A stretch of 24,000 nt of DNA from Citrifermentans bremense. GTDB lineage: Bacteria; Desulfobacterota; Desulfuromonadia; Geobacterales; Geobacteraceae. How positions within the stretch are numbered: the stretch's first letter is position 1; every line of letters begins with the position of its first letter. Position numbers and translations under genes: made by a program. The notes under the pieces were generated by a model. It did not search any database and was not told where the DNA came from. It worked only from the letters and a program-made list of their open reading frames with translations. Positions 1-19,925 of the stretch are shown one piece after another. The DNA is taken from NCBI RefSeq assembly GCF_014218275.1, contig NZ_AP023213.1, positions 4,002,954-4,026,953 of the forward strand. Reading direction: 5' to 3'.

Positions 1-728
1 ATGTAGGGGGAGATGAAAGAGATGACCGAGGCGATGGCGGTCGGGAAGGCGATCCCGCTCATGCCGCCGAAAAGATAGCCACCCCTTTTCGTCACCAGGA
101 ACCATGCTCCGGATGCAAGCGTCGCGGCCATTACGCCAAAGAAGGAGAGCGCCATGGGAGCCGCAGGCGCGGAGACAATGCCGGAAGCCAGGGTCTTCGA
201 ACCCTTGCTGAAGAGACTGCCGCAGCACGAGGTGATGATGTCGGGGTTGAGCCTCCAGAAATAGACGCCCTGCGTTGTGGTTTCGGCGAGGATCAAAGGG
301 ACCATCAGCAACAGCAGCCAGTACTTCACCCGGATCAAGGGGTAGTCGCGCCCTTCGTTGTCGGCATGGTTCAGGATGAGCCAGATCCCTGCCAGCAGGA
401 AAGTCACAACCTTCAAGAGCAACGCGGGGTATCCGAAAGCGTTCACCTTCAAGGCACCGGCCGCGCACATGGCGCCGGTGAAGAGATGACTGATGCCGTC
501 GACGGTCCCTATGAACAAAAACAGGGAGAGGAGTTGCAACGGCAGGAATACAGCGACGATGGTAGAGATGAGATAGGTCCGCCGCTCAAGGGCGAGCTGC
601 AGTTCGCTTCCGCTGGCGAGGTCCCAGTGGCGGATGATCGCTGTTCCTTCTTTTGCCGCGACGAGCAGCATCGCGCTCACCAGGAAAGAGCAGACCTGCA
701 GGGCGACTATTCCCGGGGCGAGTGTCAC
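1..728 (-). CDS. polytopic integral membrane protein, partial (3' end runs off the left edge); last visible gene of the NosL/ABC operon
   Basis: My translation of the minus strand from GTG (728-726) stays open to position 1, about 242 codons: VTLAPGIVALQVCSFLVSAMLLVAAKEG...HLFTGAMCAAGALKVNAFGYPALLLKVVTFLLAGIWLILNH...DIITSCCGSLFSKGSK...AFPTAIASVISFISPY. It has several long hydrophobic segments. The GTGA start/stop overlaps the upstream ATPase stop (725-727), and GGGAG lies about 9 nt upstream. It is absent from the ORF track because no stop lies in the window. I do not recognise the family. Confidence 0.55.
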   Translation of the reverse strand, partial: MTLAPGIVALQVCSFLVSAMLLVAAKEGTAIIRHWDLASGSELQLALERRTYLISTIVAVFLPLQLLSLFLFIGTVDGISHLFTGAMCAAGALKVNAFGYPALLLKVVTFLLAGIWLILNHADNEGRDYPLIRVKYWLLLLMVPLILAETTTQGVYFWRLNPDIITSCCGSLFSKGSKTLASGIVSAPAAPMALSFFGVMAATLASGAWFLVTKRGGYLFGGMSGIAFPTAIASVISFISPY

Positions 729-1411
729 GTATCCATACTCCCGGTCACGATCCGGCCGTCACGCATCTCCACTACCCGGTCGATGAAATCGCAGCCGTAG
801 ACGACGGGGTCGTGGCTGGCGAGGATAACCGCGGTCCCTGCCTCCTTCACCTCCTTCATAAGTGCCATGAAGTCGCAGGAAAGCTTCGTGTCAAGGTGCG
901 CAGTAGGCTCGTCGGCTATGATGACGGCCGGGCTGTTGATCATGGCGCGCGCGATCGCCACCCTCTGTGCCTCCCCTCCGGAAAGCCACTCAACCTTGGC
1001 CTCGGCGCGCCGCTTCAGGTCCAACCGCTCCAGGATATCGAGGGCCCTTTGCCTGAGCAGGCAAAAAGGCTCCCCTTCCGGGTAGGCGGGCGCCATGACA
1101 TTCTCCAGCACGGATATGCCGTTGATCAGGTTGTGGCGCTGAAAGACGAACCCGAAAGTCGATCTCCGGATTCTGGTGAGAAACCGCTCCGGCAGGCTGG
1201 TGATCTCCTCTTCCTTTACGAAGATCCGGCCGGATGTGGGGCGGGCCATACACCCGATCAAGGAGAGGAGCGTCGTCTTTCCCGAACCGCTGGGCCCAAC
1301 CAGTGCCGTGGCCTGATCAAGCCCCATTTCGAGGCTTACCTCCCGGAGCGCGCACAGTTCGTTCGGTCGACCGCCGTTGAATACCTTCATCACGTTCTGA
1401 ACGGAAATCAT
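725..1411 (-). CDS. ABC transporter ATP-binding protein (MacB/LolD/FtsE-like ATPase partner of an FtsX-type permease)
   Basis: 228-aa ORF with Walker A GPSGSGKTT, ABC signature LSGGEAQRVAIARA and Walker B VIIADEPTAHLD. It lies 7 nt downstream of the FtsX permease gene. Confidence 0.9.
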   Translation of the reverse strand: MISVQNVMKVFNGGRPNELCALREVSLEMGLDQATALVGPSGSGKTTLLSLIGCMARPTSGRIFVKEEEITSLPERFLTRIRRSTFGFVFQRHNLINGISVLENVMAPAYPEGEPFCLLRQRALDILERLDLKRRAEAKVEWLSGGEAQRVAIARAMINSPAVIIADEPTAHLDTKLSCDFMALMKEVKEAGTAVILASHDPVVYGCDFIDRVVEMRDGRIVTGSMDT

Positions 1412-1418
1412 AAGGCCT

Positions 1419-2543
1419 TCACCTCATCACCACATCTGGGTCGATTGTTGCGGCACGCCAGGAAGGGATTATGACAGCGACGGTATAGGGGACCACCGTC
1501 AGGAAGAAGAGCGCCGCGAGCTGCCGGAGATCGACGGATGGCTGGAGCCTGAAACTGGGGTAGAGGGTCGACCATCCTTTCAGGACCGGGAGGAAAAGCG
1601 CGGAGGAAAAGAAAAAGACATGGAGGTAGGCGAGGATGCTTCCGGCGAGGAAAGCCGAGAGCGAAACGACGATCCCCTCCCAGAACTTCATTAGCAACAC
1701 GTCGGACGTGTCCCACCCGACTGCCTTCAGGATGCCTATCTCTCTTCTCTCCTCGGCGGAGATCCCCGTAGCCTTGTCCCAGGCGAAGATGAAGAAGGCG
1801 AGACCCGCCCCGCTGAAGATGACCAGCAGCAGCGAAGAGCGCCAGCCATATATGGCGTCGTAGGTCCGCCGCATCTCCTCGCGCAAGATGGGACGCGCAC
1901 CGGGGAAAAGACGGGTGATCTTCTCCGCTACGGTCCGCTGCTCGCGGGGATTAGGCACCCGCACAACGAGATCCGTCGCCTGGCCTGCGGGCATACCGGT
2001 GAGCTTCCGGAAGTCCTTTTCCGAAAGGACCATGAGGTCGGCGGTCAAAAGCTGCGAATCGGAGGAGAGCGTCTTTCGGATGGTGAAGGGATGCGGCAGC
2101 CCGTCGTGCCCTGAAAGGGAGATGATGTCGCCGGGATAGGCGCCGCGTGTACGGGAAACGGCGCTGCCCAGGTCGATGCTTCCTTCAGGCGACTCGCCCC
2201 CTACAGGCACCAGGAGGGTGTAGTTGGCCGCAAACGCGCTATCGTAGCGGTATCCCCAAAGCCGAGGCGCTGCCGAGGCGACGCCGCGGATGGCGCCGAT
2301 TGTGTGTCGCCAATCCACCGGGACCGGATGAGGCCGTCCGGCGAGGGTGTTTTGGACCACGATATCAGGGGCGTCTTCGAGCAGCAGCGACGCCTCGTGC
2401 TGCAAGGCATGGGTGAAGAGCAAAACAGAAGCGACTGCGAACACCACCAGGGTATAGACAACCAGCAAGGCGGCATTTTTCCCCTTTCTCCGGAGAAAGG
2501 ACGCCAGTGTGAAGTCGAGGATGTAGCGCTGGCGTTCAATCAC
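1419..2543 (-). CDS. FtsX/MacB-type ABC permease (N-terminal TM helix, about 200-aa periplasmic domain, C-terminal 3-TM FtsX domain)
   Basis: The ORF track gives 1419..2555 from a TTG with no SD. I prefer the GTG at 2543, which has GGGAG 5 nt upstream. The topology is typical of the family: TM1 ALLVVYTLVVFAVASVLLF, a large soluble middle region, then a C-terminal block REIGILKAVGWDTSDVLLMKFWEGIVVSLSAFLAGSILAY. Confidence 0.85.
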   Translation of the reverse strand: MIERQRYILDFTLASFLRRKGKNAALLVVYTLVVFAVASVLLFTHALQHEASLLLEDAPDIVVQNTLAGRPHPVPVDWRHTIGAIRGVASAAPRLWGYRYDSAFAANYTLLVPVGGESPEGSIDLGSAVSRTRGAYPGDIISLSGHDGLPHPFTIRKTLSSDSQLLTADLMVLSEKDFRKLTGMPAGQATDLVVRVPNPREQRTVAEKITRLFPGARPILREEMRRTYDAIYGWRSSLLLVIFSGAGLAFFIFAWDKATGISAEERREIGILKAVGWDTSDVLLMKFWEGIVVSLSAFLAGSILAYLHVFFFSSALFLPVLKGWSTLYPSFRLQPSVDLRQLAALFFLTVVPYTVAVIIPSWRAATIDPDVVMR

Positions 2544-2844
2544 GGGGGCTCCCAAACAGGTGCGGGGGGGGCTGCATCAGCGTGCCGCTGGGGAAGTGCT
2601 CAAGTGACAGGGGGGAGTCCTGGAAAGCCGACGCCGTGCCGGTGATGCCGGGGTTTCTGGTATAGCCGGTCTCGGTAAAGACACAGAGGTCGGTCAATTG
2701 CAACTGTCTCGCCAACAGCGCGTTGGCAGCAACGACCGGGGCTGCGGAGTTGGCTCGCTGCCGGGCATGTACCAGCAGGCCCGCCAGGATCAAGGCGAGA
2801 AAGGCAACTGCGTTCAGGAAAAGTGCTGATTTTCGGCAGGTCAT
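2536..2844 (-). CDS. small membrane-anchored hypothetical protein (102 aa)
   Basis: Its ATG overlaps the NosL stop (ATGA at 2841-2844) and its stop overlaps the FtsX GTG start (GTGATTGA). It has an N-terminal hydrophobic anchor ALFLNAVAFLALILAGLLV. Codon style matches the neighbours. No family recognised. Confidence 0.5.
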   Translation of the reverse strand: MTCRKSALFLNAVAFLALILAGLLVHARQRANSAAPVVAANALLARQLQLTDLCVFTETGYTRNPGITGTASAFQDSPLSLEHFPSGTLMQPPPHLFGSPRD

Positions 2845-3329
2845 CGCTCAAGCAGGGAGAGCACCGCAGGCGTCACGTCCTGGAACCTGAACAGGTGTTT
2901 CCCCTCATGGTCCTTCAGGAAGTCCTCTGCCTCCGACCTGTTGGCAAAGGGTATCAGTTCGCGTCCCATCGGGCCGTACACGTCGCTCCCCGCGACGTAC
3001 AGCGCCTTTTTCCCGTCGATCAGGTTCAGCTCGTAGTAGTTGGTCACATAGACGGCCGAAACGTCAGAGGCATGGAGGCCCGGTGCATAGCGGGCAACGT
3101 TGAAATAGAACATGAACATGTCTTTGGCGCCGTCGAAGTGGAAGACTTGGCCATCGTGGAACTTGACCTGGGCGGCGAAGTCGGGATATTTCGCAACGAA
3201 CATCCCGCAGACGGGGCACCTGTCCTTTGGCCCCACCTTGTCCGACCTGATCGTGGCCGCCAACCCCAGCGCCGCGACCAGGAACGGCGCGAGGCAGACG
3301 GACAGGTAGTTAAGGAAGCGGCGGATCAT
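2841..3329 (-). CDS. NosL-family protein (putative Cu(I)-binding periplasmic/lipoprotein chaperone)
   Basis: 162 aa with a signal/anchor segment. It has the CPVCGMFVAKYPDF motif followed by FDGAKDMFMFY and GSDVYGPMGRELIPF, which I recall as the typical NosL-family pattern. An ATGA overlap joins it to the upstream gene. Confidence 0.8.
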   Translation of the reverse strand: MIRRFLNYLSVCLAPFLVAALGLAATIRSDKVGPKDRCPVCGMFVAKYPDFAAQVKFHDGQVFHFDGAKDMFMFYFNVARYAPGLHASDVSAVYVTNYYELNLIDGKKALYVAGSDVYGPMGRELIPFANRSEAEDFLKDHEGKHLFRFQDVTPAVLSLLER

Positions 3330-3841
3330 CTGGGTCCCCCGCTCGCCCCTCGCTTGGCTTTGCGCCTTTCCCTGATCGCCTTCGTGTCCTTGTACATGTC
3401 AAGGTAAGCGGCGCTCACTGACTCCTCGAAAGTGGCGAGCTTACCGCCGTTTTCCTTTACAAAGCGTTCCGCCCCTTCCTTGGTTTCGAAGGCCCATTTG
3501 GCATTGGCGGACATCACCCCCTGGCGGCTCCCTCCGATGACCCAGGACGCGGTTTCAGCGTCGATGAGGCTTTTGCTGCCGTAATCGCCCACGTAGATGT
3601 GCAACGGGGTCCTGTCTATATTTACGGCAAGATCGACGGCCGCACAGTGAAGGCTGCAGGTCGCCACGGAGGAGCCGTCGCCGTATTCGATGAGCATTCT
3701 GCTATGGCCGAACTTTGCCCTGTCCATCCCACAGTAGTTGCAGGTCGGGTACATGTCGACATCAGGGGATGCGGCCAGGGCAATCCCGGCGATTGAGGCA
3801 ACGAGCATGCTGACGATGATAAATCCTCTGAATGCTTTCAT
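3326..3841 (-). CDS. NosL-like protein, second paralogue
   Basis: 171 aa with signal peptide MKAFRGFIIVSMLVASIAGIALA. It has a CNYCGMDRAKFGHSRM motif and a second Cys pair, CSLHC, plus a basic C-terminal tail. An ATGA overlap joins it to the TlpA-like gene. Confidence 0.75.
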   Translation of the reverse strand: MKAFRGFIIVSMLVASIAGIALAASPDVDMYPTCNYCGMDRAKFGHSRMLIEYGDGSSVATCSLHCAAVDLAVNIDRTPLHIYVGDYGSKSLIDAETASWVIGGSRQGVMSANAKWAFETKEGAERFVKENGGKLATFEESVSAAYLDMYKDTKAIRERRKAKRGASGGPR

Positions 3842-4347
3842 CTGGCGCCTCCTCCCTGGTCGACCTGCTGGATTAGCTTCTCGAGCTTGGACGCCGGGAT
3901 CTGTCCAAGCACCTTCTGCCTCAGAATACCGTTTCTGTCCAGTATGAACGCCGTCGGGAAGGAAAAGACCATGAAGTCCTTCGCCAAGGTGGAACCCCCA
4001 TCGACCAGTATCGGGACCGAGAGCCCGCTGGTTGCCGCTATGGAAGCCACTTCTTTTTCCTCGTCGAGCACATTTATTGCTATGACCGCAACGCCCTTGT
4101 CCCTGTTTCTGCGAAAGACCGGCTCAAGGTCCTGTTTCAGGGTGTCGCCGCAGCAGGAATTGGTCCAGAAAAAAAGCACGACCACCTTCCCCTTGAGGGC
4201 CTCAAGGGAGACGGTGTTGCCGTTGATGTCCCTTCCGGAGACCGGTGGAGGCTCCTCGCCCACCTTCAGCATCTTCCTGTCGCACCCCCAACAAAGGATG
4301 GCGAGGCAGAAAACAATGAGGAAGAAGCGGCAGGTTGGTCGAGCCAT
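3838..4347 (-). CDS. TlpA/ResA-like thioredoxin-fold protein with a non-canonical active site (SCCGD instead of WCxxC)
   Basis: 169 aa with an N-terminal hydrophobic leader ending in CWGC. The redoxin fold signature is GKVVVLFFWTNSCCGDT ... cis-Pro motif FPTAFILDRNG. GGAG lies about 9 nt upstream of the ATG. Confidence 0.85.
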   Translation of the reverse strand: MARPTCRFFLIVFCLAILCWGCDRKMLKVGEEPPPVSGRDINGNTVSLEALKGKVVVLFFWTNSCCGDTLKQDLEPVFRRNRDKGVAVIAINVLDEEKEVASIAATSGLSVPILVDGGSTLAKDFMVFSFPTAFILDRNGILRQKVLGQIPASKLEKLIQQVDQGGGAR

Positions 4348-4374
4348 CTGGTGGTTCTCCAGGTGAGATTTATT

Positions 4375-4626
4375 CTACTGCCGGCGAATCAGGCGGAGGG
4401 TTCGATCTATGGTTTCGGCGGTCACCGACGCATCGAAGCAACCGGCACCCGCATAGGCGTCGTAATCGCGAACCTGGGCAAGCAGCAACTCAACCAGTTC
4501 ATGCCGGTGTCCATGCAGCTCAGGCGCATTCGCCACCTCGAGCACTCCTGCAAGAAGCCAGTCCGGAAAATCACCCTCTTCGTTTTTGCTGACTGCTGCA
4601 GCTTTGAGTTCCCCGAACAGATCCAT
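4375..4626 (-). CDS. small acidic hypothetical protein (83 aa from the preferred start)
   Basis: The ORF track gives 4375..4653. The internal ATG at 4626 has AGGAG 5 nt upstream, whereas 4653 has no SD. It sits 27 nt upstream of the TlpA-like gene on the same strand. No family recognised. Confidence 0.45.
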   Translation of the reverse strand: MDLFGELKAAAVSKNEEGDFPDWLLAGVLEVANAPELHGHRHELVELLLAQVRDYDAYAGAGCFDASVTAETIDRTLRLIRRQ

Positions 4627-4806
4627 CGCGTCTCCTGGCAACTCTATGTGCATGGGTGGGCTGTCGGGAAACTAGCATAAATCTAGCGGAAATAAAATAA
4701 ATTCATTACGGTGACCGATAGACCACGGAACCTTCTCCGCAGCCATCCTGGTAGCGCAGCAAACCGCCGCGAGGCGCCCGATAAGATGATTAAATGTTTT
4801 CTCCGC

Positions 4807-4834
4807 TTGACGATACATTGGTTGATGTTAATTT
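4807..4834 (+). promoter_or_regulatory. sigma70-type promoter candidate for the FN3-domain gene
   Basis: TTGACG (4807-4812), a 16-nt spacer, then TAATTT (4829-4834), preceded by an extended -10 TGn (4826-4828). It lies about 50 nt upstream of the ATG at 4884. Confidence 0.35.
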
Positions 4835-4883
4835 TTCTCAGACACAGATAACACCAACGCCTGCGAACACGAGGGGAGGCATA

Positions 4884-5531
4884 ATGAACTTTATCCTGCA
4901 AACGAGCTTCAAAGACGACACCGATGGCGACCTCATCTTAAGGGTGAGGCATATGGCCAATATACTAGACAACCTCGATGCCTACAAAACCGAGCTCCCA
5001 CCGTGGATACCCGGAGGGAAGCAGTTCCGGGAGCACGCCGACAGGTTGGAGGAAGTGGTCAACTTACCCGGTTCGGGTAAAACGAAAGAAGAAGAGAGGA
5101 TAGCCGTGCGGGAAGAGACCGTTAAGACTGTCAACTTCGCTGTGCAGTATATCACTATGTACTCAACTCACATAAACGACCCAAGCCTCCTGGAGAACCT
5201 CGGACTGGAAATCAAACATAAGACTTATTCCAGAAACCGGAAGCTCCCTGGAAAAGTGGAAAAATTAATTGCCAAAGACGACGCTGAGAAATCGGGTGCC
5301 ATGGTGATCCAAGTGAACAATGGCATTGGCAAAAAAGGAAGCGTGGAGTTGCAGATAACGGAAGGGGATCCCACCGATGAAGCGTCGTGGAGGATCGTCG
5401 ACTATTATTTCACCTGTAAATTCCATGTGGAAGGACTGGAGCCCGTGAGAAGGTACCACCTAAGGGCTAGGTTCAAGAATTCGGAAGGTAACGGGCCTTG
5501 GTCAGACGTTGCCACCGTTGTCGTCAGCTGA
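4884..5531 (+). CDS. hypothetical protein with a C-terminal fibronectin type III-like domain
   Basis: The start is set at the internal ATG 4884 (GGGGAGG 5-6 nt upstream), because the ORF-track start 4794 lies upstream of the predicted promoter. The C-terminal roughly 90 aa have the FN3 pattern: ...GAMVIQVNNG...SWRIVDYYFTCKFHVEGLEPVRRYHLRARFKNSEGNGPWSDVATVVVS. No signal peptide. GC is visibly lower than in the neighbours. Confidence 0.7.
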   Translation: MNFILQTSFKDDTDGDLILRVRHMANILDNLDAYKTELPPWIPGGKQFREHADRLEEVVNLPGSGKTKEEERIAVREETVKTVNFAVQYITMYSTHINDPSLLENLGLEIKHKTYSRNRKLPGKVEKLIAKDDAEKSGAMVIQVNNGIGKKGSVELQITEGDPTDEASWRIVDYYFTCKFHVEGLEPVRRYHLRARFKNSEGNGPWSDVATVVVS

Positions 5532-5554: not shown

Positions 5555-5589
5555 ACGCGGTTGCATCGTCCGATGCAGCCGCGTTTTTA
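5555..5589 (+). terminator. rho-independent terminator of the FN3-domain gene
   Basis: ACGCGGTTGCATCG / CGATGCAGCCGCGT form a GC-rich hairpin with one G-U pair, followed by TTTTT (5584-5588). Confidence 0.8.
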
Positions 5590-5714
5590 TTCCCGCGGCA
5601 GAAACTCGGCAGCCGGTAGAGATCTTTCCCCCCAAGATGCCCCTCTTGCGACAAAGGAAGTCAAGTCCCTCCCCTCTAAAGCCAACTCCCGCAGTAAAAA
5701 GTCAAAACTAAACA

Positions 5715-6045
5715 GGAAGAATGCATCTTCCGCCGAAGTTTTGCTATTTGCAGCCTCGGAATTGGCAATTTTTCGCCGGGGGAATACTTTCCGGCGCTGA
5801 AAATGGCATTTCCGGCCATGTAAAGTGCATTCGCCGGGCAAAAAAGGTAAAAAGTTGAACGGGAATTGCCTTCTCTGCTTCGGGGAAGGTAAAAGTTGTC
5901 GCGGGAAATGCATTACTCGGAGCAGAATAGGCAAAAAGTTTGTCGGAGATGCCATTGCCGGCTGCGGGAATGGCATCTTGATCGCAAAAGATGCCTTGCC
6001 GTCCGGCAGACATTGCCGCCGCGTCGTAACTGCCGAAGTTCCTTG
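5715..6045. repeat. array of about 12 degenerate copies of a GGGAAT-GCATT-CCGCCGG-like motif, phased at multiples of about 21 bp
   Basis: Copies start near 5715, 5757, 5778, 5799, 5822, 5861, 5903, 5945, 5966, 5987, 6008 and 6027. The spacings are 42, 21, 21, 23, 39, 42, 42, 21, 21, 21 and 19. A second motif, GGYAAAAAGTTG, at 5846, 5888 and 5930 (42-bp period) fills the wide gaps. The region is non-coding and lies between the terminator and dacB. Confidence 0.6.
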
Positions 6046-10105: not shown

Positions 10106-10426
10106 TCAGGCTGGGGTGGCAAGCTTCAGGCCGATGATGCCTGCGACGATAAGGCCTAGACTGACCAGCCTCAAAGGATTTGCGGGTTCGCCCAGCAGGA
10201 GAATCCCGAGCGCTGCTGTTCCAACTGCGCCTACGCCAACCCAGACCGCGTAGGCGGTGCCTACCGGGAGGTGCTTCATCGCGATGCCGAGGAGTCCAAG
10301 GCTGATCAACATGGAAAGCACGGTGCCCACCGTCGGCCAGGGACGGGTGAAGCCCTCGGTGTATTTCAGCCCCACCGCCCATCCGATCTCGAACAAACCC
10401 GCGACAACAAGAACGATCCAATTCAT
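10106..10426 (-). CDS. sugE: SMR-family guanidinium exporter (SugE/Gdx)
   Basis: The start is set at [26 protein letters not shown] (the ORF track begins upstream at 10465, inside the riboswitch). The 106-aa, 4-TM protein is very close, from memory, to E. coli SugE (…[18 protein letters not shown]…[17 protein letters not shown]…). Confidence 0.9.
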
Positions 10427-10439
10427 AGAAAGCCTCACT

Positions 10440-10495
10440 TTTGTTGGGGCCGTCCCCAGTTGCAAGAAAGTAGTGAGGTCGTCCTCACTTCCCAG
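10440..10495 (-). promoter_or_regulatory. guanidine-II riboswitch (mini-ykkC): two ACGR-tetraloop hairpins
   Basis: The minus-strand RNA reads ...A-GUGAGG-ACGA-CCUCAC-U (plus coordinates 10472-10489), then a 13-nt linker, then U-GGGG-ACGG-CCCC-A (10445-10458), then AAAA-GUGAGG-CUUUCU-AUG. Both loops match the conserved GG-ACGR-CC core. It sits directly upstream of an SMR/Gdx gene, which is the canonical context. Confidence 0.8.
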
Positions 10496-13308: not shown

Positions 13309-14754
13309 CTACCTGGCTGTTCGGGGGAGCTCCGCCCCCTTGCCGGTCCTGCCGGCAGCATCCTCCACCCAGTCGCCCCCCATCACCTTGTAGAGGTTTA
13401 TGGCCGCCTGCAAAAGCGCCGCCTGGCTCTGCACGTAGGCCAGCTGCCCGCTGAACAGGTTCCGCTCGGCGTCCAGCACCTCGAGGTAGCTGGAGTAGCC
13501 GTTCTCGTACCTCATGTTGGCAAGAAAGAGGTACTTCTCCAGGTCGCCGAGCTCCCTCTTCCTGACCGCGAGCTGCTCCCCGCTGGTGGCCCTGTCAACC
13601 AGCGCATCCTCAACCTCCTTGAAGGCGTTCTGGATCACCTGCCGGTAGTTGACCAGGGCCTGCTCTCGCTGCGCTTCTGCCACCTTCACGCTCCCGGAGA
13701 TCTTCCCGGCGGTAAAAACCGGCACGCTCACCGGCACGGAGTAGCTCCAGACCCGTGCGGGGCCGGTGAAAAGATCTGAGAGCTGCGCGCTCGCCCCCCC
13801 GAACATCCCGGTGAGGGTGATGGCAGGGAAATAGGCGGCCCGGGCGATGCCGATCTGGGCGTTGGCGGCGACCAGTTCCTGCTCGGCCTGCCGGATGTCT
13901 GGGCGGCGGGCCAGCAGTTCCGATGGGAGCCCTGCCGGCACCTCAGGAGGGCCCAGTTGATCGATGCTGCGGCTGCGCGGCACCGGGCCGGGGTTGCGCC
14001 CAAGGAGCAGGTTGAGCGCGTTTTCCTGCTGTGCCACCGCCTTCTCGAACTGCGGCAGGGCCGCCAGCGAGTCCTCGTAGAGGAGCTTCGTCTGCGTCAG
14101 CTCTATCTCGGAGATGACCCCGCCCCGGTACCTCTGATCGAACACCTCCAGGGTCTTTCGCCTCGATTCGGCGGTCTCCCTGCCGATCTCAAACTGGCGG
14201 TCGAGGTTGCGCAGGTTCACGTAGGAGGCCACCACCGAGGAGACCAGCGAGAGGACCACGGCCTGCCGCCCCTCCTCACTGGCGAGGTACTGTGCCCGGG
14301 CGGCCTCGGTACCGCGCCTGATCCTCCCCCAGAGGTCGAGTTCCCAGCTGGCGCTGACGGTAGCAGAAAAGGAGTCCAGCGTACTCTTATAACCGGCCGG
14401 AAGCGCGTTCCCTCCCCGCTCTGTGTTCTTTTGGCGCGCGTATTGTGCCCCCGCGCCGGCCTGGGGAAAGAGGTCGGCCCTGGCGATGCCGTACTTGGCG
14501 GCGAATTCTTCGACTAGAACGGCGGCCAGCCGCAGGTCCTTGTTCTCCCTGAGGGCGCTGGACACCAGGTCGTTCAGCACCGGGTCGCCCAACGACTCCC
14601 ACCAGCCTGAGCCTGCAAAAGCGGCAGCTTCCTTCCCCTCCGGCGCGGCGTAACGCCACTTCGCCGGGGCATCCGCATCGGGACGGACATAGTCGGGGCC
14701 GACCATGCAGCCTGAGAGGCAGCAGAGGGTGACCAGACAGATCAGGTGGCGCAT
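13309..14754 (-). CDS. RND efflux outer-membrane factor lipoprotein (NodT/OprM family)
   Basis: 481 aa with lipobox LSGCMVGPDY and the family-typical N-terminus after Cys (GPDYVRPD...WW). It shows the two-repeat OEP architecture. Its start is 1 nt from the RND pump stop (TGAcATG). Confidence 0.9.
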   Translation of the reverse strand: MRHLICLVTLCCLSGCMVGPDYVRPDADAPAKWRYAAPEGKEAAAFAGSGWWESLGDPVLNDLVSSALRENKDLRLAAVLVEEFAAKYGIARADLFPQAGAGAQYARQKNTERGGNALPAGYKSTLDSFSATVSASWELDLWGRIRRGTEAARAQYLASEEGRQAVVLSLVSSVVASYVNLRNLDRQFEIGRETAESRRKTLEVFDQRYRGGVISEIELTQTKLLYEDSLAALPQFEKAVAQQENALNLLLGRNPGPVPRSRSIDQLGPPEVPAGLPSELLARRPDIRQAEQELVAANAQIGIARAAYFPAITLTGMFGGASAQLSDLFTGPARVWSYSVPVSVPVFTAGKISGSVKVAEAQREQALVNYRQVIQNAFKEVEDALVDRATSGEQLAVRKRELGDLEKYLFLANMRYENGYSSYLEVLDAERNLFSGQLAYVQSQAALLQAAINLYKVMGGDWVEDAAGRTGKGAELPRTAR

Positions 14755-14755
14755 G

Positions 14756-17700
14756 TCAGATCACCTCCTTGCCGGCCCCGGGTTTCCCCTCTTCGCCAGG
14801 TTCCCCTGAAGGGGGTGCCTGACCGGCGCTGCCGGGTTTTTCCCCCGATGGGAGCTTACCCCTCTTCCTCCTTTCGCTCCAGCTTCCGAAGATGTAGAAA
14901 AAGAGCGGCACGTAGAGCATGGCGAGGGTCGCCTCCCCTATCATCCCGCCGATGATCCCGGTGCCGATGGAGTGCCGCGCGTTGGCACCCGCCCCCATGG
15001 CGACGGCGAGCGGGAAGACGCCGCAGATGAAGGCGAGCGAGGTCATCACGATGGGGCGCAGCCGCAGCTCGCCGGCCTCGATGGTGGCGTCCAGAAGGGA
15101 CCTCCCCTGTTTGCGCAGCTCGACCGCGAAGGTCACCCTGAGCAGGGCGTTCTTGGCCCCCAGCCCCACCAGGACCAACAGGCCGATCTGGAAGTAGACG
15201 TCGTTTTGCAGGCCGCGCATCCAGTTGAAAAGAAGCGCCCCCAGCACTCCGAAGGGGACCGCCGTCATGATGGAACCCGGCAGGGTCCAGGATTCGTACT
15301 GCGCGGCCAGGATCAGGAACACGAAGACGAGGCCGAAGGCGAAGGCGAGCCCCGAGGTCCCCCCCGCGCTCTTCTCTTCGTAGGCGAGCCCCGACCAGGC
15401 AAAGGAGTACCCCGCCGGCAGCACCTCGCCTGCCACCTCCTCCATCGCCTGCAACGCCTGCCCCGAGCTGAACCCTTCGGCCGCGTTGCCGTTCACCTTG
15501 GCTGCCGGGAAGCCGTTGAAATGCGGCAGGATGTTGGGACCGGTGACCCAGCTGGTGGTGATCACCGCGGAGAGCGGGACCATCTCGCCATTGCGGGAGC
15601 GGGTGTAGAGCCTGGCGATGTCACCCGGGTTCTGGCGGAATTCCGGCGAGGACTGCAGTATCACCCACCAGACCCGGCTGAACTCGTTGAACTGGCTTGC
15701 CGTCAGTGAGCCGAACTGCGCCTGGATGGCATTGTAGACGTCCTGCACCGGGACCTCCAGGAGGTTCGCCTTGTCCCTGTCCACCTCGACCCGGAGCTGC
15801 TGCGCCGTCGCCTTGAAGGTGGTGTTGAGGCCGGAGAGTTCCTTGCGCTGGCGCGCCTTTTCCAGGAAGGTGCGGGTCACCTGCTCGAGTTGCGCCGGTT
15901 CCCTCGACTCCTTGTCCTGGATCCAGAACTCGAAGCCCCCCGATACGCCGATGCCGGGGACAGCCGGGGGGGCGACCGGGTAGACGGTCGCCGTGGTGAT
16001 CTTCTTCGCCTCCTTGTAGACGTTCACCAGCACCGCGCGCGCGTTCTCGGCCAGCGCCTTTTTCACCGACTGGTAACGCTCCTCGAAAGGTTTCAGCGTC
16101 ACGAAGAAGGTGCCGTTGTTGGTGCTGTAGCTCCCGTCCAGAAGGCTGTAGCCGGAGATCTGGGTCCTGTTCTCGACCCCCGGGGTCCCGGCGAAGATGC
16201 GGTCCACGCGGTCGGCGACCTCCATGGTCCGCTCCAGGCTCGCTGCATCGGGAAGGAAGATGGCCGACATGACGTACCCCTGGTCCTCGTTGGGAACGAA
16301 ACTCGTGGGGATAGCCCGGAACAGGTGCACGATCCCGTAGACGAGAACCACCAGAAGAAGGAGCGCTACGGCCATCCGCCTGATGACCAGGACCACCCCC
16401 CTGCCGAAGGCCCGGGTGAAACGGTCGAACTGGCGGTTGAACCAGGCGAAGGGCCCCCTGGTCGGGGGGGGCGAGTGGCGCAGCAAAAGGCTGCTCAGGG
16501 CCGGCGTGAGGGTGAGCGCCACGAAGCCGGAGATGGCCACCGATATGGCGATGGTGATGGCGAACTGCTTGTAGAGCTGACCTGTGGTCCCCGGGAGGAA
16601 GGCGGCGGAGACGAAGACGGCCCCCATGACCAGCACCGTGGCGATGACAGGGCTCGTGACTTCCCCCATCGCCTTGATGGTCGCCTCCCTGGGAGAGAGG
16701 TGGCACTGGGACATGTTCCGTTCCACGTTCTCGACCACGACGATGGCGTCGTCGACCACAATTCCAATGGCGAGTACCAGGCCGAACAGGGTGAGGAGGT
16801 TGATGGAGAAGCCCAGCGAGAGCATCACCGGGAAGGAACCGATGAGGGCGACGAAGATGGCGATGGCGCAGATGATGGTGGCGCGGAAGTTCTGCAGGAA
16901 TAGGAACACCACCAGCACCACCAGCACGATTGCCTCGATCAGGGTGTCCTGTACCTCCTTGATGGAGAGCCGGACGAACTCGGTGGTGTCGAGAGAGACG
17001 ACGTAGTCGATGCCGCTGGGGAAGCGCTTCTTCATCTCCTCCAGCGTGTTCCGGATCTCGCGGGACACCTTGAGCCCGTTCGCCCCCGGCTGCTGGTAGA
17101 TAGCGATCAGGGTGGCGGGCCTTCCGTTCAGCTTGCTGTCCATCACGTACTGCCTGAGGCCGACCTCGGCGCGCGCCACGTCCTTGAGCCTGACGATGGC
17201 GCTCCCGTCCTGGCTGGCGCGCAGGATGATGTTGTCGTACTCCTCGGCCCTGGTGAAGGGGCGCTGGGTCACCACCGGAAAGGTCATCTGGACTGCGCCG
17301 GCGTTCGGCTGCTGGCCGATCTGCCCCGCCCCGAACTGGGAGTTCTGGGTGGAAACCGCCTGCTGTATGTCGCTGGTGGTGATGCCCAGCGATGCCATCC
17401 GCTCCGGGTCCATCCAGATGCGCATCGCCTGGTCGGCGACCCCCATGATCGACGCCTGCCCCGCCCCAGGTACCCTCTTGAGCGCGTCGAGCACGTAGAC
17501 GTTGGCGTAGTTGGCGATGTACTCGCTGGAGTAGCGGCTCTCCCTGGAGGTGATGCAGATCAGCATCATGATGGAGGAGGTCTTCTTCTGGACCGACACC
17601 CCCTGCTGGGTCACGGCGACCGGGAGCTGGGGGACGGCGAGGTTCACCCGGTTCTGGACCTGCACCTGGGCCACGTCGGGGTCGGTGTTGAGCCCGAAGT

Positions 17701-17980
17701 AGACGGTGATGGTGAGCATGCCGCTGGAGGAGCTGGTCGAGGACATGTAGAGCATGTTGTCGATGCCGTTGATCTGGGCCTCCAGCGGGGCCGCAACGGA
17801 ATCGGCCAGCGTCCTCGAGTCGGCGCCGGGGTATGTCGCCTGCACCGTGACCTGGACCGGCGTGATGGGCGGGTACTGCTCGACCGGCATGGCGAAGAGC
17901 GCCACCACCCCCGCGATGCAGATGATGATGGAGACCACCGCGGCAAAAACGGGGCGCTCTATGAAGAACCTGGAGAACAT
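14756..17980 (-). CDS. RND multidrug efflux pump, inner-membrane permease (HAE1, AcrB/MexB-like)
   Basis: 1074 aa. The N-terminus MFSRFFIERPVFAAVVSIIICIAG is the canonical AcrB-family start. It has the 12-TM, two-large-loop organisation. Confidence 0.95.
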   Translation of the reverse strand: MFSRFFIERPVFAAVVSIIICIAGVVALFAMPVEQYPPITPVQVTVQATYPGADSRTLADSVAAPLEAQINGIDNMLYMSSTSSSSGMLTITVYFGLNTDPDVAQVQVQNRVNLAVPQLPVAVTQQGVSVQKKTSSIMMLICITSRESRYSSEYIANYANVYVLDALKRVPGAGQASIMGVADQAMRIWMDPERMASLGITTSDIQQAVSTQNSQFGAGQIGQQPNAGAVQMTFPVVTQRPFTRAEEYDNIILRASQDGSAIVRLKDVARAEVGLRQYVMDSKLNGRPATLIAIYQQPGANGLKVSREIRNTLEEMKKRFPSGIDYVVSLDTTEFVRLSIKEVQDTLIEAIVLVVLVVFLFLQNFRATIICAIAIFVALIGSFPVMLSLGFSINLLTLFGLVLAIGIVVDDAIVVVENVERNMSQCHLSPREATIKAMGEVTSPVIATVLVMGAVFVSAAFLPGTTGQLYKQFAITIAISVAISGFVALTLTPALSSLLLRHSPPPTRGPFAWFNRQFDRFTRAFGRGVVLVIRRMAVALLLLVVLVYGIVHLFRAIPTSFVPNEDQGYVMSAIFLPDAASLERTMEVADRVDRIFAGTPGVENRTQISGYSLLDGSYSTNNGTFFVTLKPFEERYQSVKKALAENARAVLVNVYKEAKKITTATVYPVAPPAVPGIGVSGGFEFWIQDKESREPAQLEQVTRTFLEKARQRKELSGLNTTFKATAQQLRVEVDRDKANLLEVPVQDVYNAIQAQFGSLTASQFNEFSRVWWVILQSSPEFRQNPGDIARLYTRSRNGEMVPLSAVITTSWVTGPNILPHFNGFPAAKVNGNAAEGFSSGQALQAMEEVAGEVLPAGYSFAWSGLAYEEKSAGGTSGLAFAFGLVFVFLILAAQYESWTLPGSIMTAVPFGVLGALLFNWMRGLQNDVYFQIGLLVLVGLGAKNALLRVTFAVELRKQGRSLLDATIEAGELRLRPIVMTSLAFICGVFPLAVAMGAGANARHSIGTGIIGGMIGEATLAMLYVPLFFYIFGSWSERRKRGKLPSGEKPGSAGQAPPSGEPGEEGKPGAGKEVI

Positions 17981-17992
17981 GTTATGTCTCCT

Positions 17993-19174
17993 TTACCTGC
18001 CGCGGGCCCCGGGCCCGGCGTTCGGGCGCCCCGACGAGTACCGCTGCAACTGCACCTTGCTCCCTGCGCTGAGCGCGAGGGTGCCATCCACCACGACCCG
18101 CTCTCCCCCCTTGATACCCTCCGAGATGTACCACTCGTTCCCCCGCCACTCCCCGACAGTAACCGGGCGCTGCTCGACGGTGTCGTCCCTGCCCACCACC
18201 CAGACGAAGTGCCCCTGCGCCCCCTGCTGCACCGCGCGCTGCGGCAGCAGGATCGCCTGCGGGCGCAGCGCCCCCTTGAGCCTGACCCGGACGAACTGGT
18301 TCGGGAGGAGGTGGCCGTTGCGGTTGTCGAGGCTCGCCCTGATCAGGAAGGTCCCGGTCTGCGGATTATAGGAGGGGGCGGCGAAGGTGATCCGGCCTGT
18401 CTGCGGCAGCGGCGTCCCGTCGGGGAGCACCACCTCGACCAGGAACTTCTCCCCGGAGGGTACCCTCAGCCTGCCGCTGGCGATCTCCTGGCGGTACTTC
18501 AGCATCTCGTTCTCGGACATGCTGAAGTTGACCCAGATGGGGGAAAGGGCCGAGACCGTGGTGAGCAGGCTGTTCTGGGAGCTGATGTAGGTTCCCTCAG
18601 CCTGCTGCGCCGCGCTCGTGATGCCCCGAATCGGGGAGGTGATGGTGGCGTAGGAGAGGTTGAGGAGCGCGGAGTCCAGCTGCGCCTTGGCCTGCTCGAC
18701 CGCCGCGGCTTCAGACTGGAACCTGCTGGTGGCGTCGTCCAGGTCCTTCTTGGAGAGCGCGTTCACCTGGGCCAGCGGCTTGGTCCGCTCCAGGTTCAGG
18801 CGCGCCGCCTTCAGGCCGGCCTCCTGCCGGGAGAGGGCGGCACGAGCCTGGGCGACCTGGACCTGGAACGGCTTGGGATCGATCTGGAAGAGGACCTTCC
18901 CCTTGTCGACAATGGCCCCCTCGGTGTAGAGGCACCGGTCCAGGAACCCGTTCACCCGCGCCTGTATGTTCACCATCTGCGAGCTCTGCGTCTGCGCTAT
19001 CTTCTCGAGGACGACCGGTCCGTCTTGTGGCTGCACCACGATGACCGAGACTGTCGGGGTTGACGTGGCAGGCTCGAGCTTCTCCTTCTTGCCACAGCCG
19101 GAAAAGGCAAGGGAAACGCCGCACAAAAGCGTTGCCACTAAAACCCCCGGAATTGCCGCCTTGACCTGCCTCAT
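17993..19174 (-). CDS. RND efflux membrane fusion protein (AcrA/MexA family lipoprotein)
   Basis: 393 aa with lipobox AFSGCGKK, plus lipoyl/hairpin/beta-barrel-type sequence (VNGFLDRCLYTEGAIVDKGKVLFQIDPKPFQ...ATITSPIRG). It lies 12 nt upstream of the pump gene. Confidence 0.9.
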   Translation of the reverse strand: MRQVKAAIPGVLVATLLCGVSLAFSGCGKKEKLEPATSTPTVSVIVVQPQDGPVVLEKIAQTQSSQMVNIQARVNGFLDRCLYTEGAIVDKGKVLFQIDPKPFQVQVAQARAALSRQEAGLKAARLNLERTKPLAQVNALSKKDLDDATSRFQSEAAAVEQAKAQLDSALLNLSYATITSPIRGITSAAQQAEGTYISSQNSLLTTVSALSPIWVNFSMSENEMLKYRQEIASGRLRVPSGEKFLVEVVLPDGTPLPQTGRITFAAPSYNPQTGTFLIRASLDNRNGHLLPNQFVRVRLKGALRPQAILLPQRAVQQGAQGHFVWVVGRDDTVEQRPVTVGEWRGNEWYISEGIKGGERVVVDGTLALSAGSKVQLQRYSSGRPNAGPGARGR

Positions 19175-19232: not shown

Positions 19233-19925
19233 TCACGGCGCTACGCACCCGGTCCCCCCGCGGTTCTGGCACAGGAGGTACGCGGCCCGCCTGGCCCAGA
19301 ACTTCATCGCCTCGTCCGCGCCGTGCCAGGTGTCCCAAGCCCCCTGCAACGATGCGCCGCCGACGCGCCGGTCCAGTGCTGCAATCAGCAGCTCGCCGTT
19401 CTCCGCATCGGTCAGTCTGAATTCGGCAGTTATCTCCCCGACGGCGCTAGGCTTGCCGGTGGCTGCGTATTTCGCCGCGTTTATCGCGAGCCCGATGGGC
19501 AAAATGGTGGAGGTGATGCTCCGCACCCGGCTCGACGTGTCGATGTCGCGGATCGCCATCTGCAGGACCATGGTGTCCTTTTCAGGCCTCTTGACCACCC
19601 GGATCTCCTTTTGCAGCGCTTCGGTCAGGTAGAGGTAGGCGTTGTCGGCCAGTTTTTGGTAGTTCTCCTTCTCCTGGACGCTGAGTTCCCCGTCCTTCGC
19701 AATCAACACCGGCTCTACCAGGACCGCGGAGTACCTCCTGATGTCGAATCCTGGGTTGACGTAACGGTACAGGGCCTGCCCCGAGCTCCCCCTTTGCAGG
19801 ATCTCCGGCTTGAACAGCATGGTGTTCTTGACCTCGACCTCGCGCGCCTGCTTGCTGGCGCCGCAACCGCCCAGGATGAGTGCCGCTATTGCCGGCAGTA
19901 TGCTGGTCAAAAGTTTGATTCTCAT
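19233..19925 (-). CDS. putative lipoprotein, DUF3313-like
   Basis: 230 aa with lipobox LILGGCGAS and a GAGGAGG RBS. Its size and pattern (YRYVNPGFDIRRYSAVLVEPVLI...) match my recollection of DUF3313. The domain name is not verified. Confidence 0.7.
   Translation of the reverse strand: MRIKLLTSILPAIAALILGGCGASKQAREVEVKNTMLFKPEILQRGSSGQALYRYVNPGFDIRRYSAVLVEPVLIAKDGELSVQEKENYQKLADNAYLYLTEALQKEIRVVKRPEKDTMVLQMAIRDIDTSSRVRSITSTILPIGLAINAAKYAATGKPSAVGEITAEFRLTDAENGELLIAALDRRVGGASLQGAWDTWHGADEAMKFWARRAAYLLCQNRGGTGCVAP

Follow-up and report, generated by a model that had tools for sequence, protein, structure and literature searches.

A widespread NosL-ABC gene cassette in Citrifermentans bremense and its possible role in copper handling in the cell envelope

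Why should two genes for NosL, which the literature sees as a dedicated helper of nitrous-oxide reductase, lie together in an operon with no nos genes in view? The question is raised by a 24,000-nucleotide (nt) stretch of Citrifermentans (formerly Geobacter) bremense DNA (NZ_AP023213.1, positions 4,002,954 to 4,026,953; the window in the following). Open reading frame (ORF) analysis found eight co-directional genes on its minus strand from position 4626 to position 1, here named g1 to g8, with g8 continuing past the left window edge. Five of them, g4 to g8, form a core that recurs across phyla, often next to genes for copper proteins, and we favour, with evenly balanced confidence, a function in the handling of copper. 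The eight genes are:

g1, 4375-4626, minus strand: acidic protein of 83 amino acids (aa), predicted cytoplasmic, GSU3529 family
g2, 3838-4347, minus strand: exported or anchored TlpA/ResA-like thioredoxin-fold protein of 169 aa, with SCCG replacing CxxC
g3, 3326-3841, minus strand: periplasmic NosL paralogue of 171 aa, TRASH-like (CxxCGM and CxxxC), with a signal peptide and without a lipobox
g4, 2841-3329, minus strand: periplasmic NosL paralogue of 162 aa (CxxCGM, DxxxD, GPMG)
g5, 2536-2844, minus strand: single-pass membrane protein of 102 aa
g6, 1419-2543, minus strand: FtsX/MacB-type (type VII) permease of an ATP-binding cassette (ABC) system, 374 aa, GTG start
g7, 725-1411, minus strand: ABC ATPase of the MacB/LolD/FtsE subfamily, 228 aa
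g8, 1-728, minus strand: membrane protein with eight transmembrane (TM) helices, GTG start, the N-terminal 242 of 332 aa in the window

An operon with a conserved five-gene core

The genes are tightly packed. On the coding strand, ATGA overlaps are found at 3838-3841, 3326-3329 and 2841-2844, a GTGA overlap at 725-728 and a GTGATTGA overlap at 2536-2543, and the sole intergenic gaps measure 27 nt (g1/g2) and 7 nt (g6/g7). Coordinates and junction sequences thus agree exactly with the initial annotation of this DNA, which had described eight co-directional ORFs with these overlaps and gaps. Gene calling done independently for a Logan contig (L001) and for C. bemidjiense (L002) returned the same eight products. 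The window part of g8 is 100% identical to a 332-aa 'putative membrane protein' of C. bremense, and its completion needs a further 90 codons (about 270 nt) left of the window edge.

We read the left flank from the sister species C. bemidjiense Bem (Gbem_3583-3590), in which the operon is syntenic. There the 332-aa g8 is its last gene, after which comes a convergent M23 peptidase; an S13 peptidase and a 130-aa ORF stand upstream, as in the window. The initial annotation had considered that nosZ or nosD might lie beyond the left edge, but neither these two genes nor nosF or nosY were found within 10 kb on either side of the operon in C. bemidjiense. No nos genes are present in the window, and NosZ and NosD domains were absent among 142 neighbour proteins of related loci; the whole genome was not searched.

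How far the cassette extends beyond Citrifermentans was assessed with g8. Among 1.84 billion representative proteins its family makes up 933 clusters (50% identity), and in a collection with one genome per species we located relatives at no fewer than 577 genomic places in six phyla or more. Among the taxa are Geobacterales, Desulfuromonadales, Syntrophobacterales, Desulfobulbales and Nitrospirota/Thermodesulfovibrionales, and further Desulfuromonadota, Thermodesulfobacteriota, Ca. Methylomirabilis, Methylococcales, Aminicenantes and an alphaproteobacterium (Dongiaceae). The hosts, several hundred species, thus range over iron reducers, sulfate reducers, syntrophs, Nitrospirota and methanotrophs.

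We then scored gene presence by tblastn of the window proteins against the 80 best g8 loci, 67 of which had enough flanking DNA to be evaluable. The g7 ABC ATPase lies directly upstream of g8 in 67/67 evaluable loci. The FtsX permease g6 is present in 65/67, g5 in 62/67 and the g4-type NosL in 59/67, and all four occur together with g8 in 55/67. The g3-type NosL was found in 35/67 loci, and a thioredoxin-fold gene, at lower identity, in about 21 of the 80. In split cassettes (L016, L050, L067), the ABC ATPase remains with g8, and NosL, g5 and FtsX likewise remain joined. At three loci (L020, L036, L070) cusA is directly followed by g5-FtsX-ABC-g8, without a NosL gene. From the presence counts and the pairings in split cassettes we conclude that the conserved unit is a five-gene core of g4 to g8, with g3 as a frequent sixth member, g2 variable and g1 lineage-specific. 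The initial annotation had treated all eight genes as one unit and had asked whether related genomes keep it; the gene set is indeed conserved, even across phyla, but the unit that is kept has five genes rather than eight.

Of the two genes outside the core, g1 matches the NCBIfam model NF045727 (GSU3529_fam) with 98.6 bits at a cut-off of 44. It had been listed with g5 and g8 among three proteins without a recognisable family; this no longer applies to g1 but stands for g5 and g8, which have no Pfam family. Neither a TM segment nor a signal peptide is predicted for g1. Its ATG at 4626 is kept in C. bemidjiense, whereas an upstream ATG at 4653 is not. Only the two Citrifermentans species have the gene together with the cassette, and a homologue search returned 7 close relatives, for which the UniRef label 'addiction module component' was the sole name and no further functional lead emerged. 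Judged from these sequence comparisons, g1 is a lineage-specific first gene that lies outside the conserved cassette.

The second gene, g2, matches the Pfam families AhpC-TSA (67.1 bits), Redoxin (53 bits) and Thioredoxin_8 (30.4 bits), and with 73 bits stays below the cut-off of 170 of the ResA model. The SCCG motif noted initially is present, in the context FWTNSCCGD; i.e., the second cysteine is adjacent to the first instead of three positions on, and CxxC is absent. We compared this motif among the redoxins of L002, L009, L083, L007, L031, L056, L022, L034, L062 and L081. SCCG is common to g2, C. bemidjiense (L002), L009 and Geomonas (L083), and the other cassette-linked redoxins carry WCxxC (Nitrospirota and others), CSSC (beside cusBA) or ACGC (some Geobacter metagenome-assembled genomes). 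The Citrifermentans g2 lineage appears to have moved from a redox motif towards a vicinal-thiol motif.

Ligand sites, copper-gene neighbours and flanking DNA

The NosL, FtsX, ABC and redoxin calls of the initial annotation all pass their Pfam thresholds. For NosL (PF05573; cut-off 24), the scores were 52.6 bits with g3 and 111.5 bits with g4, and the Cu(I) ligands are kept in both. In NosL of S. denitrificans these ligands are Cys62, Met64 and Met145, and their mutation abolishes copper delivery (PMC8457098). g4 aligns over its full length to the NosL structures 7og7, 7osf and 2hpu, with its CPVCGM and GPMG motifs falling on Cys59/Cys62/Met64 and on Met145 (S. denitrificans numbering). In g3 it is the C-terminal half that aligns to S. 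denitrificans NosL (7og7), the Met145 position included. The Cu(I)-ligand motifs CxxCGM and G(P/V)M are kept in 98 of 99 orthologues. Among g4-type proteins, CxxCxM is found in 61/62 and DxxxD in 56/62, and among g3-type proteins both CxxCxM and CxxxC in 37/37.

The two paralogues differ at the structural zinc site (Cys59/Cys62/Cys88/Asp92), which is known to vary among NosLs (PMC8457098). The positions of Cys88 and Asp92 are taken by Cys-x3-Cys in g3 and by Asp-x3-Asp in g4, and in g3 this pair forms, with CxxCGM, a four-cysteine TRASH-like arrangement. With only 27% identity between them, g3 and g4 are probably old paralogues. Their N-termini resemble signal peptides without a plausible lipobox, and a lipobox-like motif was seen in only 1/37 g3-type and 3/62 g4-type orthologues. 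As neither type has a lipobox, both proteins are presumably soluble or signal-anchored in the periplasm, unlike canonical NosL.

Thiol and imidazole groups are also conserved in the two membrane proteins that source databases name only 'hypothetical' or 'putative membrane protein'. g5, whose gene always lies just upstream of FtsX, has the periplasmic motif LTDLC…YTRNP…FQDSP.sLEHFPSG, and its tail contains 17 invariant columns (LTDLC, YTR.P, F..P…EHFP.G), among them one Cys and one His. In an AlphaFold2 (AF2) model, residues 5-47 form a confident TM helix, whereas the conserved tail is of low confidence and disordered, which suggests that the tail may fold against a partner. No Pfam family matched g5 above threshold. 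A weak match to DUF6162 (E 0.05; 3/24 members match, best E 0.003) may represent a distant link to another uncharacterised family, for which no mention was found in the literature.

For g8, AF2 confidently predicts eight long helices (predicted local distance difference test score, pLDDT, 84.7). C88, SCCG (168-170) and HHCPFC (249-254), i.e., five cysteines and two histidines, are invariant. Counts of Lys and Arg place loops 1-2, 3-4, 5-6 and 7-8 inside (13 positive charges vs 6), and because the odd loops are thereby put in the cytoplasm, all three invariant sites are predicted to face the periplasm. The cytoplasmic loops are likewise invariant, but acidic or polar and not thiophilic. None of the TM helices has a conserved Cys, Met or His, which argues against a Cu(I) translocation pathway through g8. 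This absence favours a periplasm-facing binding or redox platform that would be coupled to a cytoplasmic partner, plausibly the nucleotide-binding domain (NBD) of the ABC system. g8 gave no Pfam match even at E≤10, no match in a PDB profile search and no PDB fold match, and neither sequence nor fold similarity to DsbD/CcdA, DsbB/VKOR, CopD or MerT was detected.

The ABC system itself is of a known class. g6 matches Pfam FtsX with 36.2 bits (cut-off 25.5), and its hydropathy profile gives TM1 at 25-43, a periplasmic domain of about 190 aa in the loop 44-235, and TM2-4 at 236-360; the MacB_PCD model of Pfam (PF12704) found no match in g6. g7 scores 106.8 bits with ABC_tran. Its best PDB matches are the Spr0694-type NBD 5xu1, MJ0796, MacB, LolD and FtsE, and its best NCBIfam matches are LolD, MacB and FtsE, each below its equivalog cut-off (LolD 185.6 vs 307.75; FtsE 170.7 vs 264.85; MacB 173.2 vs 966). 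The lolCE model gave 26.7 against 362.45 for g6. By these profile matches g6-g7 is a type VII ABC system (MacB/FtsX/LolCDE class), and because every equivalog cut-off is missed widely, it is distinct from Lol, Fts and MacB proper, and readings as Lol or Fts were rejected on these scores. At one Ca. Methylomirabilis locus (L019:10033-11238) g8 is followed by another, divergent FtsX-like permease with 42% identity to g6.

To see in which company the cassette occurs, all ORFs of the 80 loci were clustered, and the 142 other neighbour proteins were subjected to a Pfam census. The commonest neighbour, in 22/80 loci, is a heavy-metal pump of the CusA/CzcA family of resistance-nodulation-division (RND) transporters, often co-directional and contiguous. 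One pump that we tested scored 1087 bits with TIGR00914 (CusA/CzcA), and 1004 bits with E. coli CusA vs 490 with the zinc pump ZneA. An RND adaptor, CusB-like with a C-terminal YHS domain, is present in 18 loci, a Met-rich YtkA/FixH-like protein in 10 and a sigma-54 response regulator in 9. The genes of many loci run contiguously and co-directionally in the order adaptor-CusA-(redoxin)-NosL-NosL-g5-FtsX-ABC-g8. The census further gave Sco1 in 4 loci, DsbD_2 in 3 (DsbD_2-cupredoxin) and an extra NosL in 4, and at L071:4506-6251 the gene of a three-domain multicopper oxidase separates the NosL genes from the redoxin-g5-FtsX part. Upstream of the cassette in one Aminicenantes locus stands a TonB-dependent receptor. 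Since CusA-type pumps, CusB-YHS adaptors, YtkA, Sco1 and multicopper oxidase are the recurrent neighbours, Cu(I) (or Ag(I)) is the most likely substrate.

Two gene fusions were observed in Methylococcales. After the cassette, NosL is fused to a C-terminal domain of about 300 aa with weak likeness to outer-membrane channels (Phenol_MetA_deg; L049:11046-12527, L055:10862-12478, L027:2458-3879), and before it, a DsbD_2 membrane domain is fused to a cupredoxin-like domain (L055:5057-6346, L077:4946-6319).

Upstream of the operon, the window holds the following further features:

4671-4706, minus strand: candidate promoter/operator block, 36 nt, AT-rich, ATGAATTTATTTTATTTCCGCTAGATTTATGCTAGT, non-coding, upstream of g1
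4794-5531, plus strand: 245-aa ORF with a weak fibronectin-III match, between the operon and a conserved 129-aa ORF (5587-5976, minus strand)
10106-10465, minus strand: small ORF for a four-helix protein like SMR (small multidrug resistance) transporters and SugE
10446-10490, minus strand: guanidine-II (mini-ykkC) riboswitch, 41.9 bits vs a gathering score of 32
13309-19174, minus strand: tripartite RND operon with OEP, an AcrB-type ACR_tran protein (1070 bits) and a HlyD/CusB-fold adaptor
19233-19925, minus strand: DUF3313 protein adjoining the RND operon

Upstream of the operon, C. bremense and C. bemidjiense have otherwise diverged; the block at 4671-4706 is the only long stretch well conserved there and may be a promoter or operator. 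A sigma-70 consensus scan found no match in it, and promoter and terminator scans gave nothing exceeding shuffle expectation. For the ORF at 4794-5531, no equivalent gene is called in C. bemidjiense. The SMR/SugE-like ORF lies directly downstream of the riboswitch, in the classic arrangement of a guanidinium exporter. The RND operon was considered as a partner of the cassette and set aside, as it encodes an AcrB-type multidrug pump, not a CusA-type one, and lies 9 kb away; the two are probably unrelated.

A copper reading and its rivals

What, then, might the cassette do? The reading that we favour, to which we give about an even chance, is that of a self-contained machine of the cell envelope for Cu(I), possibly Ag(I), which works independently of nitrous-oxide reductase. 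The initial annotation had proposed a periplasmic system for a thiophilic metal or a sulfur species. The thiophilic metal is supported and narrowed to copper by the neighbouring genes, whereas for the sulfur species no support emerged.

In this machine, the periplasmic NosL chaperones g3 and g4 would bind Cu(I) at their Cys/Met/Met sites and swap it with an inner-membrane complex of the g6 permease, the g7 ATPase, g5 and g8. ATP hydrolysis in the cytoplasm would be transmitted mechanically to the periplasmic side, where tightly bound metal would be loaded or stripped. The g5 cysteine and the Cys/His cluster of g8 could serve as thiolate stations, and g2 might keep thiols reduced or be a further metal-thiolate station. 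NosL is known to dock to NosDFY and to pass Cu(I) on in an ATP-dependent cycle (PDB 7osf-7osj, 7znq), and MacB-type ABC systems perform mechanical work on the periplasmic side. The affinity of NosL for Cu(I) is cited in the literature as attomolar. We propose a g5-g8 complex acting on NosL because NosL holds Cu(I) this tightly, because the ATP-driven conformational cycle of NosDFY is the known means of passing it on, and because type VII ABC systems are the class that transmits ATP hydrolysis to periplasmic domains. As CusBA is the commonest neighbour, removal or buffering of periplasmic Cu(I) would be the likeliest net role, feeding a CusBA-type pump in many relatives.

Several observations weigh against this copper machine. 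The periplasmic domain of g6 has no conserved Met or His cluster, and g6 as a whole lacks any cysteine, which makes metal binding by this domain unlikely. The g8 helices, devoid of conserved Cys, Met and His, give no clue to the final destination of the metal. The CusA pump and CusB adaptor are absent from the C. bremense operon itself, the only RND pump in the window is the distant AcrB-type one, and about 70% of the related loci have no cus genes within the DNA retrieved. The NosL-barrel fusions of Methylococcales and the one TonB-receptor locus point to acquisition, not efflux. Also, a full-text literature search found no published description of the cassette.

Acquisition is what the main rival claims. 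The cassette would be a NosDFY-L-like assembly line for clients other than NosZ, by which scarce Cu(I) is acquired in anoxic or sulfidic habitats and inserted into multicopper oxidases, cbb3 or CuA oxidases, or particulate methane monooxygenase (pMMO). As a chaperone NosL is known for delivery, the methanotrophs Methylococcales and Methylomirabilis, with their high copper need, carry the cassette, and Sco1 in 4 loci, the multicopper oxidase inside L071, the DsbD_2-cupredoxin and NosL-barrel fusions of Methylococcales and the TonB-dependent receptor of Aminicenantes all fit supply. Moreover, other clients have been suggested for NosDFY-L clusters that lack NosZ (PMC13068155). We nevertheless regard copper supply as unlikely, for no client cuproenzyme is conserved beside the cassette, its commonest neighbour is an efflux pump, and a NosD-like periplasmic acceptor is absent. 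The periplasm-facing cysteines of g8 (CxxC, a vicinal CC and a further Cys) lend themselves instead to thiol-redox repair of the Scs/DsbD-TlpA kind, in which g8 would pass electrons to g2, g5 and NosL to mend copper-induced disulfides, with metal transfer secondary. TlpA-like redoxins in about 21 loci and DsbD_2 in 3 are in line with this, and Salmonella ScsBCD, which ties TlpA-like and DsbD-like proteins to copper tolerance, sets a precedent. Yet g8 has no detectable similarity to DsbD, CcdA, DsbB or VKOR, its cysteines sit in loops and not in TM helices as in DsbD/CcdA, the redoxin is missing from most loci, g2 lacks CxxC, and the ABC motor is left unexplained; we consider such a repair system improbable.

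The same vicinal cysteines of g8 and g2 recall those of MerT, and the host genus methylates and demethylates mercury. A Mer-like relay, from NosL to g8 as from MerP to MerT, could accordingly serve other thiophilic species, i.e., Hg(II), methylmercury, Ni or sulfide/polysulfide, and NosL does share its fold with MerB (PMC10114901, PMC8261052). No mer genes were found among the neighbours of the surveyed loci, however, the CusA-type, YtkA, Sco1 and multicopper oxidase neighbours are all copper-specific, and the Cys/Met/Met ligand set of NosL is that of Cu(I), so that cargoes of this kind appear more improbable still. Hardly credible is a nos cluster in degenerate or variant form, or a generic ABC system of the Lol or peptide-exporter kind that just happens to lie beside NosL genes, in spite of the NosL name and of LolD as the best ATPase match. 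The Lol equivalog scores are far too low (26.7 vs 362, 185.6 vs 307.75), and the five-gene order, conserved across phyla, rules out chance adjacency. As for nos, none of nosZ, nosD, nosF and nosY was found in 20 kb of C. bemidjiense or among the neighbours at 80 loci, and with no nos genes found at the C. bremense and C. bemidjiense or related loci the nos-cluster variant is essentially excluded.

Beyond the copper machine as such, g5-g8 together with NosL could represent an unrecognised class of ATP-powered machine, built on a type VII ABC, that loads or unloads periplasmic metallochaperones and would be to copper a kind of Ccm or NosDFY; this is a tentative idea that we hold for possible but doubtful. 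Within this class g7 would serve two membrane partners, the FtsX permease and the new-fold g8, and g8 would provide a Cu(I)-thiolate site facing the periplasm. The g7-g8 pair is adjacent even in the split cassettes (L016, L050, L067). If the idea were true, a major copper-handling route in anaerobes, Nitrospirota and methanotrophs would have been overlooked.

With or without a new machine class, NosL appears here as a recurring partner of a different, widespread machine. Copper is scarce as well as toxic in anoxic habitats, and should that machine handle Cu(I), bacterial copper homeostasis there would gain a new ATP-driven step. Two unannotated protein families would then receive a function, and the 'mechanotransmission' class of ABC systems would extend to metal trafficking. 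Relatives in Geobacter are genetically tractable, so the idea is testable there.

Comparison with known systems

In a 2020 review of bacterial copper homeostasis, NosL figures only as a chaperone of NosZ. Measured against known systems, the cassette resembles a copper relay of the NosL-ABC kind, but its ABC class differs and two of its membrane components are uncharacterised; it is apparently unstudied.

The closest parallel is NosL-NosDFY of P. stutzeri. There, too, a NosL-family chaperone with Cys/Met/Met ligands is encoded beside an ABC transporter, whose ATP cycle is thought to drive hand-over in the periplasm and not passage of a solute across the membrane. In contrast to the ABC-2 type NosY, however, the cassette has an FtsX/MacB type VII ABC. 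It lacks the β-helix acceptor NosD and the client NosZ, its NosLs are non-lipoproteins in two ancient paralogues, and g5 and g8 are without counterpart in nos clusters.

With MacAB-TolC, LolCDE and FtsEX the cassette shares the 4-TM FtsX fold with a large periplasmic domain (g6) and an NBD closest to MacB, LolD and FtsE (g7). Unlike in these systems, the periplasmic domain of g6 is not recognised by the MacB_PCD model and the scores stay under the equivalog cut-offs. Moreover, the operon encodes no membrane-fusion or outer-membrane partner; its partners are metallochaperones and Cys-bearing membrane proteins. CusCFBA likewise combines a periplasmic soft-metal chaperone with an envelope pump, and the cassette is contiguous with CusA/CusB-type genes in 22/80 loci. 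Its chaperone is nevertheless of NosL/TRASH type and not CusF, an ATP-driven machine is added, and no cus genes adjoin the operon in the window.

ScsABCD and DsbD-TlpA also link a TlpA-like periplasmic protein and a Cys-bearing polytopic membrane protein to copper. g8, however, is unrelated to DsbD and ScsB by sequence and its fold has no solved match, and the redoxin has SCCG, not CxxC, and is optional in the cassette. In its architecture the cassette can finally be compared with CcmABCD-CcmE-CcmG, in which ATP is used to release haem-loaded CcmE. Each has an ABC ATPase with its permease, a polytopic loader and a small single-pass subunit, joined by a periplasmic chaperone and a TlpA-like thioredoxin. 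The likeness is an architectural analogy and no more, as there is no sequence relationship and the cargo is haem in the one and would be a metal ion in the other.

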